This document shows, one piece after another, positions 38,783-41,236 of a stretch of DNA of 64,000 bases. Numbering within the stretch: position 1 is the stretch's first letter; each line of letters starts with the position of its first letter. The translations under genes were made by a program, and so were the position numbers. The stretch is taken from contig NZ_CP079946.1 of the NCBI RefSeq assembly GCF_019968905.1, positions 5,729,356 through 5,793,355 of the forward strand, in the 5' to 3' direction. Below the pieces are notes generated by a model. The model was not told the origin of the DNA, did not search any database, and was given only the letters and a program-made list of their open reading frames with translations. Source of the stretch: Corallococcus sp. EGB (lineage in GTDB: Bacteria > Myxococcota > Myxococcia > Myxococcales > Myxococcaceae).

Positions 38783-39274
38783 CTATTCCGGCCGTGGCCG
38801 CCGGTAAGTGGCGAGAATGACAGGGACGGCAACCGCTGTCACCAGAAGTGCCTGCGCCAGCAGCACCGCCGGTAGCGGGCGCTGCACATGGACGTACAGC
38901 GAGCGGCCAAGAGCCAGCCCCAGCAGGACGCCCGTCAACGTGCGCACCGCGTTGGAACCGGAAGCGGGCCGGAAGCGTCCCACCGCCCAGTCCCCGAGCG
39001 CGGGCAGCGTGAGCGCCAGCACCACCGGCACGTCCCACTCCCACTGGAGCGGCGCCTTCAGCGCGAACAGCCCGACGAAGACGGCGGCGAGCACCGGGTA
39101 CGTGCCCAGGCACCGCGCGCACACGCGCGCGCCCGCGAGCAGGTACGTGCGGTTGTACTCATCCGCGTGATGATGGCTGAGCCAGAACACCGGCACCTCC
39201 TCCGGACGCGGAAACAGCGGGCCCGTGCTGCATGTCGCGCGAATCCCCTTCGGCCAGGAAGCACGCCGCGGCAT
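38783..39274 (-). CDS. DUF2085-like membrane protein (Cys-rich CxxC); start uncertain
   Basis: [10 protein letters not shown] motif plus three or four TM helices; the track ORF (to 39331) and even the MPRRASW start overlap the 3' end of the upstream ABC ATPase gene. Confidence 0.45.
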
Positions 39275-40214
39275 GGCCTCCCCCCAGGGGATACAGCGGC
39301 GGTGATTCAAGGCGGCAGCGCTCCATCGCATGCGGGCAGCGCGGATGGAAGGCGCAGCCGGACGGCGGAGACAGGGGCGAAGGCGGCTCGCCCGGCAGGA
39401 GCAGCCGGGCCCGGGGACGCTCCGGATCCGGCACCGGCACCGCGGACAGCAGGGCCTGCGTGTACGGATGGCGGGGACCTGCGTACAGCGCCCGCGACGG
39501 CGCGACCTCCACGATGCGGCCCAGGTACATCACCGCCACGCGCGTGGACACGTACTCCACGATCTTCAGGTCGTGCGCGATGAAGACGTAGGTCAGCCCG
39601 CGCTCGCGCTGCAGGTCCACCAGCAGGTTGACGATCTGCGCCTGGATGGAGACGTCCAGCGCGCTGATGGGCTCGTCCGCCACCACCAGGTCCGGACGCA
39701 ACGCGATGGCACGTGCGATGCCGATGCGTTGACGCTGGCCTCCGGAGAACTCGTGCGGGTAGCGGTGCCGCGCCTCGCGGGGCAGCCCCATGGCGTCGAG
39801 CAGCGCCAGCACCTCGTCCTCGCGAGCCTTGCCCTTCGCGAGCCCGTGGATGGCGAAGGGCTCCGCGAGGATGTCGCCCACCATCATGCGCGGGTTGAGC
39901 GATGCGTACGGGTCCTGGAAGACGAGCTGCATCTGCCGGCGCAGCGGGCGCAGCTCGCGCTGGGACAGCCCGGTCAGCTCGCGCCCGGCCACGCGGATGG
40001 AGCCGGAGGTCGGGTCGAGGAGGCGCAGCACCGCGCGCCCCAGGGTGCTCTTGCCGCAGCCGCTCTCCCCCACCAGGCCCAGCGTCTCGCCCCGGGCGAC
40101 GTCGAAGGACACGCCGTCCACCGCGCGCACCGTGCCGCGCGTTCGCCCCAGCCACCCGCCCTTCACCGGGAAGTGGACCTTGAGGTCGCGCACCTGGACC
40201 AGGGGTTCGCTCAT
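39159..40214 (-). CDS. Oligopeptide/dipeptide-type ABC transporter ATP-binding protein (OppF/DppF-like). Start at [11 protein letters not shown]; no cognate permease or binding protein nearby
   Basis: Walker [10 protein letters not shown], signature [14 protein letters not shown], Walker B LVVADEP, C-terminal oligopeptide-ABC domain (HPYTQALL...CAFHPRCP); the 3' end may be shorter than the ORF. Confidence 0.75.
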
Positions 40215-41236
40215 GGCGCGGGCACCGGGTGGTGGCAGGCGGCGGACTGGCCTCCGCGCTTCGGCTCCAGCACGGGCGTGACGCGGGCGCACAGCTCCGA
40301 GGCGCGGTCGCAGCGGTCCCGGTACGCGCAGCCGGACGGCAGCGCGGTGAGCGACGGCACCATGCCGGGAATGGCCTTCAGCCGCTGACGCCCGCCGTCC
40401 GCCGCCGCGCCCGCGTCGTGCAGCGACGGGATGGAGCGCAGGAGGCCCGCCGTGTACGGGTGCGCGGGCCGCGCGAACAGCTCGCGCACCGGGGCCTGCT
40501 CCACGATGCGGCCCGCGTACATCACCACCACCGCGTCGCAGCTCCCCGCCACCACGCCCAGGTCGTGGGTGATCAGCATCACCGCCATGTGGCGCTCGGC
40601 CTGGAGGCGCTTGAGCAGCTCCAGGATCTGCGCCTGGATGGTGACGTCCAGCGCCGTGGTGGGCTCGTCCGCGATGAGCAGCGCCGGATCACACGCGAGC
40701 GCCATGGCGATCATCACGCGCTGGCGCATGCCGCCGGAGAGCTGGTGCGGATACGCATCCACGCGCTCGCCGGGCGCCGGGATGCCCACCTGCCGGAGCA
40801 TCTCCACCGCGCGCTCGCGGGCCTGCGCCCTGGTGGCGCCCAGGTGCAGCCGGACGCCCTCGCCAATCTGCTCGCCCACGGTGAACACCGGGTTGAGCGA
40901 CGTCATGGGCTCCTGGAAGACCATGGCCACGTGCCGCCCGCGCACGCGGCGCATCTCCTTCTCCGGCAGGGCCAGCAGGTCCTCGCCCCGGAAGCGCACC
41001 TCGCCGCCCACCACGCGGCCAGGTGGCTGGGGGACGAGCCGCATCACCGACAGCGCCGTGAGGCTCTTGCCGCAGCCGCTCTCCCCCACCACCCCGAGCG
41101 TGCCGCCGGGAGGAACGGTGAAGGACACGCCGTCCACCGCGCGCACCGTGCCGCGCGGGAGCGACAGCTGGGTGACGAGCCCCCGCACGTCCAGGAGCGG
41201 GGCCGGGGCCCCGGGGGACGGCGCGGCACCGGTCAC
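40211..41236 (-). CDS. Oligopeptide/dipeptide-type ABC transporter ATP-binding protein (OppD/DppD-like)
   Basis: Walker [26 protein letters not shown], Walker [21 protein letters not shown]...CAYRDRC. Confidence 0.8.

Follow-up and report, generated by a model that had tools for sequence, protein, structure and literature searches.

Within the genome of Corallococcus sp. EGB, a stretch of 64,000 nucleotides (contig NZ_CP079946.1, positions 5,729,356 to 5,793,355; hereafter the window) encodes on its minus strand two ATP-binding cassette (ABC) ATPases of the OppD and OppF type (positions 39159 to 41236), with neither a permease gene nor a substrate-binding protein gene beside them. Comparison of gene order among myxobacteria indicates that the pair became an orphan when oppA, oppB and oppC were cleanly deleted from an ancestral opp operon, and the two ATPase genes are found to be under continued purifying selection. 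We consider it reasonably probable, though well short of certain, that the two proteins are a working ATPase dimer left over from the lost importer and now serving PepT-type permeases encoded elsewhere in the genome. The analysis is mainly corrective, in that the pair, placed by an original prediction in a Tad-like gene cluster, should not be counted in the Kil/Tad predation machine and owes its orphan state to a datable gene loss.

The OppD/OppF pair

The two genes and their junction are the following:

40211..41236, minus strand: OppD/DppD-type ABC ATPase, 341 residues, GTG start; Pfam ABC_tran and oligo_HPY
39159..40214, minus strand: OppF/DppF-type ABC ATPase, 351 residues from the ATG at 40214; Pfam ABC_tran and oligo_HPY
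40211..40214, minus strand: ATGA overlap of the oppD stop with the oppF start, read from the sequence; translational coupling

Both proteins are, judged by sequence, ordinary ATPase subunits of the PepT family, one of the D-type and one of the F-type. The Pfam E-values for ABC_tran and oligo_HPY are 2e-32 and 6e-20 in the OppD-like protein and 4e-29 and 7e-18 in the OppF-like protein, and the Walker A, Q-loop, LSGGQ-type signature, Walker B, D-loop and H-loop motifs are all visible in both, which bears out the original prediction of complete motifs followed by a C-terminal oligopeptide-transporter extension. The closest solved structure of the OppD-like protein is that of M. tuberculosis OppD (PDB identifier 8j5q, E=1.7e-122), followed by E. 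coli DppD (8z1v, 4e-98) and OppD (8z21, 8.5e-94) and then by DppF and OppF, and the top E. coli match of the OppF-like protein is DppF (1.4e-102). Direct motif reading of the OppD-like C-terminus gives the cysteine pattern C-x5-C-x6-C-x17-C, whose four cysteines align with C284, C290, C297 and C315 of E. coli DppD, and the spacing in the OppF-like protein is identical to that of E. coli DppD and DppF. In the E. coli complex, these four DppD residues carry a [4Fe-4S] cluster without which the complex is not stable. The four cysteines of the OppD-like and OppF-like proteins are predicted to be the [4Fe-4S] ligands of the oligo_HPY extension.

The genes are closely packed. The GTG start of oppD at 41236 forms a GTGA overlap with the stop of the upstream MshEN gene, and the ATGA overlap at the other end of oppD agrees with the translational coupling to oppF that had been proposed earlier. 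The GTG at 40292, first listed as the oppF start, probably lies too far upstream, and the ATG at 40214 within the ATGA overlap is the likelier start. The OppF proteins of the orphan clade have an extra C-terminal tail of roughly 10-25 residues that runs into the next gene; the 3' end of oppF and the start of the DUF2085 gene overlap by 32 nucleotides in the window (39159-39190) and likewise in Myxococcus xanthus (locus L083, 12038-12069), whereas in the loci L084 and L087, described below, the two genes merely abut. A foreign origin of the pair had been suspected from the low third-position GC of the stop-to-stop open reading frames (ORFs), but this suspicion was dropped, as with correct gene boundaries the GC content at third codon positions (GC3) is 0.96 and 0.89 for the two genes, typical of the genome.

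The pair can be compared with E. coli DppBCDF and OppBCDF and with M. tuberculosis OppABCD (PepT; Transporter Classification 3.A.1.5). These share with the window the combination of ABC_tran and oligo_HPY, the D-then-F gene order, the stop/start overlap, the catalytic motifs, the four-cysteine spacing and a permease-bridging glutamate. The window locus differs from them in having no oppA, oppB or oppC, in the MshEN genes upstream of the pair, in the DUF2085 gene that overlaps its 3' end and in a leucine in the A-loop of OppD.

The ancestral operon and the loss of oppABC

No PepT permease or binding protein was found in the window by phmmer with E. coli OppA/B/C and DppA/B/C as queries (E<=1e-5), and in Pfam scans of essentially all window genes the sole other ABC genes are those of a Wzm/Wzt-type ABC-2 exporter (2605-4932). 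A tblastn search of the window with queries from three lineages that retain the operon found no remnant of OppA/B/C either, the best match being at chance level (E=0.18). The earlier statement that no OppB/C permease or OppA gene lies nearby thus holds for the whole window, and so does the placing of the pair between the DUF2085/extracytoplasmic function (ECF) sigma factor genes and the MshEN genes, given a minus-strand order of DUF4292, MshEN2, MshEN1, OppD, OppF, DUF2085, ECF sigma, anti-sigma, Flp-like, CpaB, TadB, TadC, FHA and FHA. The features on the upstream side of the pair are the following:

43917..45119, plus strand: ExbB and ExbD, divergent; Pfam MotA_ExbB and ExbD; a neighbour of the opp locus conserved from Vulgatibacter to Corallococcus
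43044..43874, minus strand: DUF4292 lipoprotein-like gene; Pfam DUF4292; upstream flank of the ancestral opp operon
43033..43043, no strand: gap of 11 nucleotides between DUF4292 and MshEN2; the position of oppA-oppB-oppC in sister lineages and hence the mark of the deletion
42235..43032, minus strand: stand-alone MshEN protein 2; Pfam MshEN, 4.3e-15
41233..42225, minus strand: stand-alone MshEN protein 1; Pfam MshEN, 1.8e-11; its stop overlaps the OppD start (GTGA)

The missing genes are found at the same place in several relatives. In L084, a metagenomic contig whose OppD is 72% identical to that of the window, the genes run ExbD, ExbB, DUF4292, binding protein, two permeases, MshEN, MshEN, OppD, OppF, DUF2085, ECF, anti-sigma, Flp-like, CpaB, TadB, TadC, FHA and XseA, which is the order of the window with oppABC added between DUF4292 and MshEN2. 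Two metagenome-assembled genomes (MAGs; L087 and L088) are arranged as L084 is, with SBP_bac_5 and two BPD_transp_1 genes after DUF4292, and Vulgatibacter (L086) has oppA-oppB-oppC-MshEN-oppD-oppF within a matching neighbourhood of HEAT-cyclophilin, DAP_DH, MaoC and ExbBD genes and without DUF2085, ECF or Tad genes. The MshEN2 ortholog lies directly 3' of oppC in L084, L087 and L088, and that of MshEN1 lies between oppC and oppD in L084 and L087. DUF4292 is kept upstream of oppA in L084, L087 and L088 (the window copy is 43% identical to the Vulgatibacter neighbour), and in the same three lineages, which keep oppABC, DUF2085 also follows oppF. The retaining loci (L084, L086-L088) therefore resemble the window in having orthologous ATPases (OppD 69-72% and OppF 68-76% identical to those of the window), shared flanks (DUF4292, ExbBD, ACAD and MaoC) and MshEN genes in equal position, and differ from it in keeping the binding protein, both permeases and the phenylalanine of the OppD A-loop. 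L084 and L087 further differ in a gap of 85-100 nucleotides between MshEN1 and oppD, where the window genes overlap.

Since Vulgatibacter has the operon at the orthologous locus without DUF2085, ECF or Tad genes, gene order indicates that in the ancestral opp operon an MshEN gene separated the permease genes from the ATPase genes, and that DUF2085, the ECF/anti-sigma pair and the Tad genes became its neighbours later. The stand-alone MshEN genes occupy 41233-43032 of the window (minus strand), 8187-9915 of L084 and, as one copy, 12162-12995 of the Vulgatibacter locus. In L088, a protein of 769 residues with no recorded Pfam match (5776-8085) takes the place of MshEN1.

DUF4292 is followed directly by MshEN2 in seven loci, viz., the window, C. 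exercitus, M. xanthus, an Archangium MAG, Hyalangium versicolor, Cystobacter ferrugineus and strain GXIMD 01537, and the SBP_bac_5 and two BPD_transp_1 genes are absent from all seven orphan loci (the window, L001-L003, L083, L089 and L090); in the window, 11 nucleotides stand where oppABC sit in the retaining lineages. The best 120 homologs of L084 OppB listed, down to 51% identity, come only from uncultured Myxococcaceae/Myxococcales MAGs and Vulgatibacter, with none from a cultured genus of Myxococcaceae. An OppD search, by contrast, returned mostly Corallococcus, Myxococcus, Pyxidicoccus, Archangium, Hyalangium, Cystobacter and Melittangium at 77-97% identity. As none of these genera is among the close OppB homologs listed, oppABC seem not to have been relocated in them. 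Neighbour-gene identities put Archangium and Hyalangium nearer to Corallococcus than L084 and L087 are, so that the simplest reading of the data is a single loss of oppABC in the common ancestor of the cultured genera, and the branching order of a neighbour-joining tree of OppD leaves one versus two losses unsettled. A mirror image of the window is seen in another Myxococcales MAG (L085, 8361-11991), in which oppA-oppB-oppC stand without any ABC ATPase gene within 10 kb, the OppB being 59% identical to the L084 protein.

Selection and conservation

The pair is under continued purifying selection. The whole block is collinear with the genome of C. exercitus SDU142, whose OppD is 96% identical to that of the window (96-97% among Corallococcus orthologs and 77% in M. 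xanthus), and in comparison with C. exercitus the ratio of nonsynonymous to synonymous substitution rates (dN/dS) is 0.118 for OppD and 0.095 for OppF, among the lowest values in the block and comparable to those of TadB, MshEN2 and ECF. In 100 OppD orthologs of the orphan clade, the Walker A, Q-loop, signature, Walker B, H-loop and HPYT motifs are all kept, and the four cysteines and Glu126 are each kept in 100/100. Glu126 aligns with Glu114 of E. coli DppD, which forms a salt bridge to Lys243 of DppB in the coupling region and is the one contact residue compared. The stretch around Glu126 (TSLNPV.TVGEQI.E.VRLH), in the Q-loop/helical subdomain, is nearly invariant in the orphan clade. By every test that sequences make available, the pair is still in use.

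One position departs from this pattern. Residue 24 of OppD, in the A-loop (codon 41165-41167), is Leu and not Phe in the window, and Leu is found in all 21 OppD proteins of Myxococcus, Corallococcus and Pyxidicoccus and in 40 of 79 from the Archangium group. Phe is present in 15/15 OppD proteins of operon-retaining loci, 28/29 canonical relatives and 25/25 unlinked pairs of other phyla, and Hyalangium OppD, though an orphan, has also kept it.

Unlinked OppDF pairs in other genomes and known shared ATPases

A census of 80 OppDF loci from other genomes yielded 56 with enough flanking sequence to be assessed, and 29 of these have no permease within 5-6 kb. Unlinked pairs occur in Acidobacteriota, Dehalococcoidia, Heliobacteria, Methylomirabilota and Latescibacterota, and the loci with neither a PepT permease nor a binding protein within 5-10 kb are L004-L010, L019-L023, L028, L029, L035, L036, L045, L050, L055, L056, L061, L063, L064, L073, L074 and L080. 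The lack of a permease nearby is therefore not unusual in itself, given that unlinked OppDF pairs are common in several phyla. These pairs resemble that of the window in having no permease within 5-10 kb and in an OppD 55-64% identical to the window's, and differ from it in having other neighbours, no MshEN or DUF2085 genes and the A-loop Phe. DUF2085, MshEN, ECF and DUF4292 genes were not found beside the unlinked pairs of other phyla; the one weak DUF4292-like match is in L013, which is a canonical DF-ABC operon. Canonical operons had been expected for the closest non-myxobacterial relatives, but the Pfam-identified neighbours in L004 are MurJ and a TolC-like outer-membrane efflux protein. 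Nor do the unlinked pairs form one clade with a special function, as in the neighbour-joining tree the unlinked state tracks taxonomy. Several of the acidobacterial unlinked loci have a third, unrelated ABC ATPase 5-8 kb away.

Importer ATPases that are encoded apart from their permeases are also known from sugar uptake. MsmX of Bacillus subtilis is an unlinked importer ATPase shared among permeases. MsiK of Streptomyces (listed in PMC3924187) is likewise encoded apart from its permeases. Both differ from the window pair in being single CUT1-family (MalK-type) proteins that act as homodimers and serve several sugar permeases by experiment, whereas the window encodes a PepT heterodimer with a putative partner.

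Probable function and alternative explanations

In the reading that we favour, which takes up the second option of the original prediction (permeases encoded elsewhere), OppD and OppF are the normal heterodimeric nucleotide-binding pair of a PepT-family (Opp/Dpp-type) importer that depends on a binding protein, and the remnant of a myxobacterial oppA-oppB-oppC-MshEN(-MshEN)-oppD-oppF operon situated beside DUF4292 and exbBD. The oppA gene and both permease genes were cleanly deleted, probably in a common forebear of the cultured genera of Myxococcaceae and Archangiaceae, and the MshEN genes, oppD, oppF and the later-added DUF2085, ECF and anti-sigma genes persisted as one co-directional, partly overlapping string. 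As the cognate permeases are gone, partner permeases would have to be encoded elsewhere, and since the catalytic motifs, the [4Fe-4S] cysteines and the coupling-helix contact residues are all kept, we infer that the pair still docks on PepT-type membrane subunits from other loci of the genome. ATP hydrolysis by the pair would then drive the uptake of peptides or oligosaccharides, and its place beside the Kil/Tad genes would reflect gene-order history and probably shared transcription, the pair having no mechanical part in pilus function. Without DppA, E. coli DppBCDF shows no ATPase activity (PMC12136057), and by analogy a pair lacking a partner should be idle. Three PepT-family membrane proteins are listed for M. 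xanthus, MXAN_2019, MXAN_2020 and MXAN_6552 (PMC3924187, supplement), and these, along with the 29 OppDF loci that are unlinked among the 56 assessed and the oppABC of L085, which has no ATPase nearby, make unlinked partners plausible. In the literature searched, we found no annotation, phenotype or published mutant for MXAN_4662-4667, MXAN_2018-2021 or MXAN_6552/6553, and nothing relevant on orphan OppD OppF or on DUF2085.

Several points weigh against this reading and keep our confidence in it moderate. The partner is a putative one, and the candidates MXAN_2019/2020 and MXAN_6552 may have ATPases of their own, which is the point that chiefly limits our confidence. The OppB lineage that once belonged to the pair seems to have been lost, and any partner would therefore be a non-orthologous permease. 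The tight, overlapping MshEN-OppD-OppF-DUF2085 string outlived oppABC, and a permease-independent module would look alike. The change from Phe to Leu in the A-loop of most orphan OppD proteins hints at altered constraint at one ATP site. In a comparison of few sequences, the divergence of OppD and OppF in the orphan clade is also slightly faster than that of ExbB, ExbD and ECF, whereas in the retaining lineages OppD is slower than these. In E. coli, either ATP site alone sustains ATPase activity (PMC12136057), and a weakened OppD site need therefore not be harmful.

The most serious alternative, which we hold to be possible but rather unlikely, is exaptation, in which, after the loss of oppABC, OppD-OppF would have become an ATP switch working with the two MshEN proteins and perhaps DUF2085, with output to the ECF/anti-sigma pair or to Kil. 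It would account for the MshEN-MshEN-OppD-OppF-DUF2085 string, which is intact in 7/7 orphan loci with its GTGA, ATGA and 32-nucleotide overlaps, for the Leu of the A-loop in most orphan OppD proteins and for the failure to find a cognate OppB of a cultured genus among the best 120 homologs listed. The ancestral position of MshEN genes between oppC and oppD also suggests that their products acted on the ATPases, and both MshEN proteins have tandem motifs resembling the cyclic di-GMP (c-di-GMP)-binding motif, the definition of which we take from V. cholerae MshE. MshEN1 has two tandem 24-residue motifs (residues 4-27 and 34-57), and those of MshEN2 (residues 21-44 and 50-73) have Asn where Gly stands in the motif. 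On the other hand, DUF2085 stands alongside a full oppABC set in L084, L087 and L088 and is thus not a permease substitute, the invariance of Glu126 and of the Q-loop/helical-subdomain stretch in 100 orphan orthologs is hard to explain without a permease, E. coli PepT ATPases are inactive without permease and binding protein, Hyalangium is an orphan with the A-loop Phe kept, and no non-transport role of this kind is known in the PepT ATPase family. The extended version, in which such a switch would couple c-di-GMP or nutrient state through MshEN, and perhaps DUF2085, to the ECF/anti-sigma pair and, by that route, to the way in which the Kil pilus is expressed or assembled, seems improbable to us; if true, it would give a PepT-family ATPase pair a non-transport role. 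Apart from the fate of the pair, the gene order suggests that the Myxococcales opp operon had built-in c-di-GMP receptor-like genes, a hint that a peptide importer was under c-di-GMP control.

We regard as very unlikely the idea, which extends a suggestion of the original prediction, that the pair works as part of the Tad-like (Kil) system and powers FHA-domain or other Kil membrane proteins. The pair does share its strand with nearby Flp, CpaB and TadBC genes, with no convincing terminator between, an adjacency to Tad genes that is kept in Corallococcus, GXIMD 01537, L084 and L087, and in M. xanthus and Cystobacter the pair is found beside minor-pilin genes. But Vulgatibacter has the opp operon at the orthologous locus without Tad genes, neither CpaB nor TadBC is encoded within 10 kb of the pair in Archangium and Hyalangium, and the Tad minor-pilin genes next to the Cystobacter locus are inverted. 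Kil has a CpaF-type ATPase of its own, KilF, and both proteins of the pair match ABC families only in Pfam, with no homology to Tad components. FHA proteins, moreover, are not known to have a coupling helix of the type on which ABC ATPases dock. By gene order, with the numbering inferred, the M. xanthus pair would be MXAN_4664/4665, three genes beyond the end of the published kil cluster II, whose last gene is MXAN_4661 ('Putative zinc-finger' in the eLife supplement), and both Kil papers are silent on ABC components. Taken together, the locus without Tad genes in Vulgatibacter, the loose linkage to Tad genes in Archangium and Hyalangium and the end of kil cluster II at MXAN_4661 do not bear out membership in a Tad-like cluster, and the companion suggestion that the pair energises FHA or DUF2085 proteins finds no support, as DUF2085 coexists with real permeases in sister lineages.

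To the notion that the pair has no function and is decaying after the deletion of the rest of the opp operon we give almost no credence. The disappearance of the cognate permease and binding-protein genes, the mild relative acceleration in rate and the A-loop substitution might be read in its favour. Against this, both frames are intact in every one of the seven orphan loci, which represent six cultured genera and strain GXIMD 01537, as well as in about 100 ortholog clusters with all motifs kept, dN/dS in the closest comparison is about 0.1, like that of TadB, MshEN2 and ECF, and GC3 is genome-typical, so that the data on selection and conservation effectively refute pseudogene decay. What remains is an importer ATPase pair under purifying selection in at least six cultured genera after its cognate subunits vanished. 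The family is well known, the two proteins are ordinary for it, and other unlinked pairs like this one are common; the retention of the orphan pair makes a clean natural test case of partner switching among ABC importers.

Neighbouring genes and other features of the window

The genes on the downstream side of the pair are the following:

38783..39190, minus strand: DUF2085 small membrane protein, 135 residues; Pfam DUF2085; GTG start at 39190 with GGAGG just upstream, this start being chosen from the sequence and by comparison with the M. xanthus ortholog
38071..38718, minus strand: ECF sigma factor; Pfam Sigma70_r2 and r4; likely start the ATG at 38718
36674..38074, minus strand: zf-HC2 anti-sigma factor; Pfam zf-HC2; counterpart of M. 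xanthus MXAN_4661
33500..36655, minus strand: Tad/Kil genes, viz., Flp-like (94 residues), CpaB/KilB, TadB/KilG and TadC/KilH (M. xanthus names KilB, KilG and KilH from PMC8460266); Pfam RcpC and T2SSF; context only, outside the ABC unit

The ECF sigma gene follows DUF2085 in every Myxococcaceae-type locus examined. A scan for promoters and terminators gave a single sigma-70-like site, upstream of cpaB, and within the block no terminator that convinces, which is weak evidence either way in a genome of 71% GC (the value for the window). In M. xanthus (L083, 14631-20733), the anti-sigma gene is separated from the small Flp gene by the TadE, TadG and TadE minor-pilin genes (KilM4, KilN4 and KilL4) and three further genes; in Cystobacter (L089, 12474-16996) this block is inverted, and in the window (36371-38074) it is absent, the anti-sigma gene being followed directly by the Flp-like gene and cpaB. 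Between the two Corallococcus genomes, the large FHA protein (30442-33426) is 75% identical with a dN/dS of 0.42 and the anti-sigma factor (36674-38074) 72% identical with a dN/dS of 0.64, the rest of the block being at about 0.1-0.2.

Farther away, three bactofilin genes followed by a gene for a ParB_N-domain protein (12532-15331, minus strand) form a block that resembles the BacNOP-PadC locus of M. xanthus, which would agree with the window being the MXAN_46xx region. A hybrid histidine kinase (18121-20634, minus strand) has GAF, HisKA, HATPase and receiver domains and a short, sub-threshold GGDEF match at its C-terminus. The longest xseA ORF (26930-29197) overlaps the first FHA gene (28663-30414), both on the minus strand, by about 500 nucleotides, and as its Pfam match begins at ORF residue 258, the real start of xseA probably lies well downstream and the overlap is likely an artefact of ORF listing.

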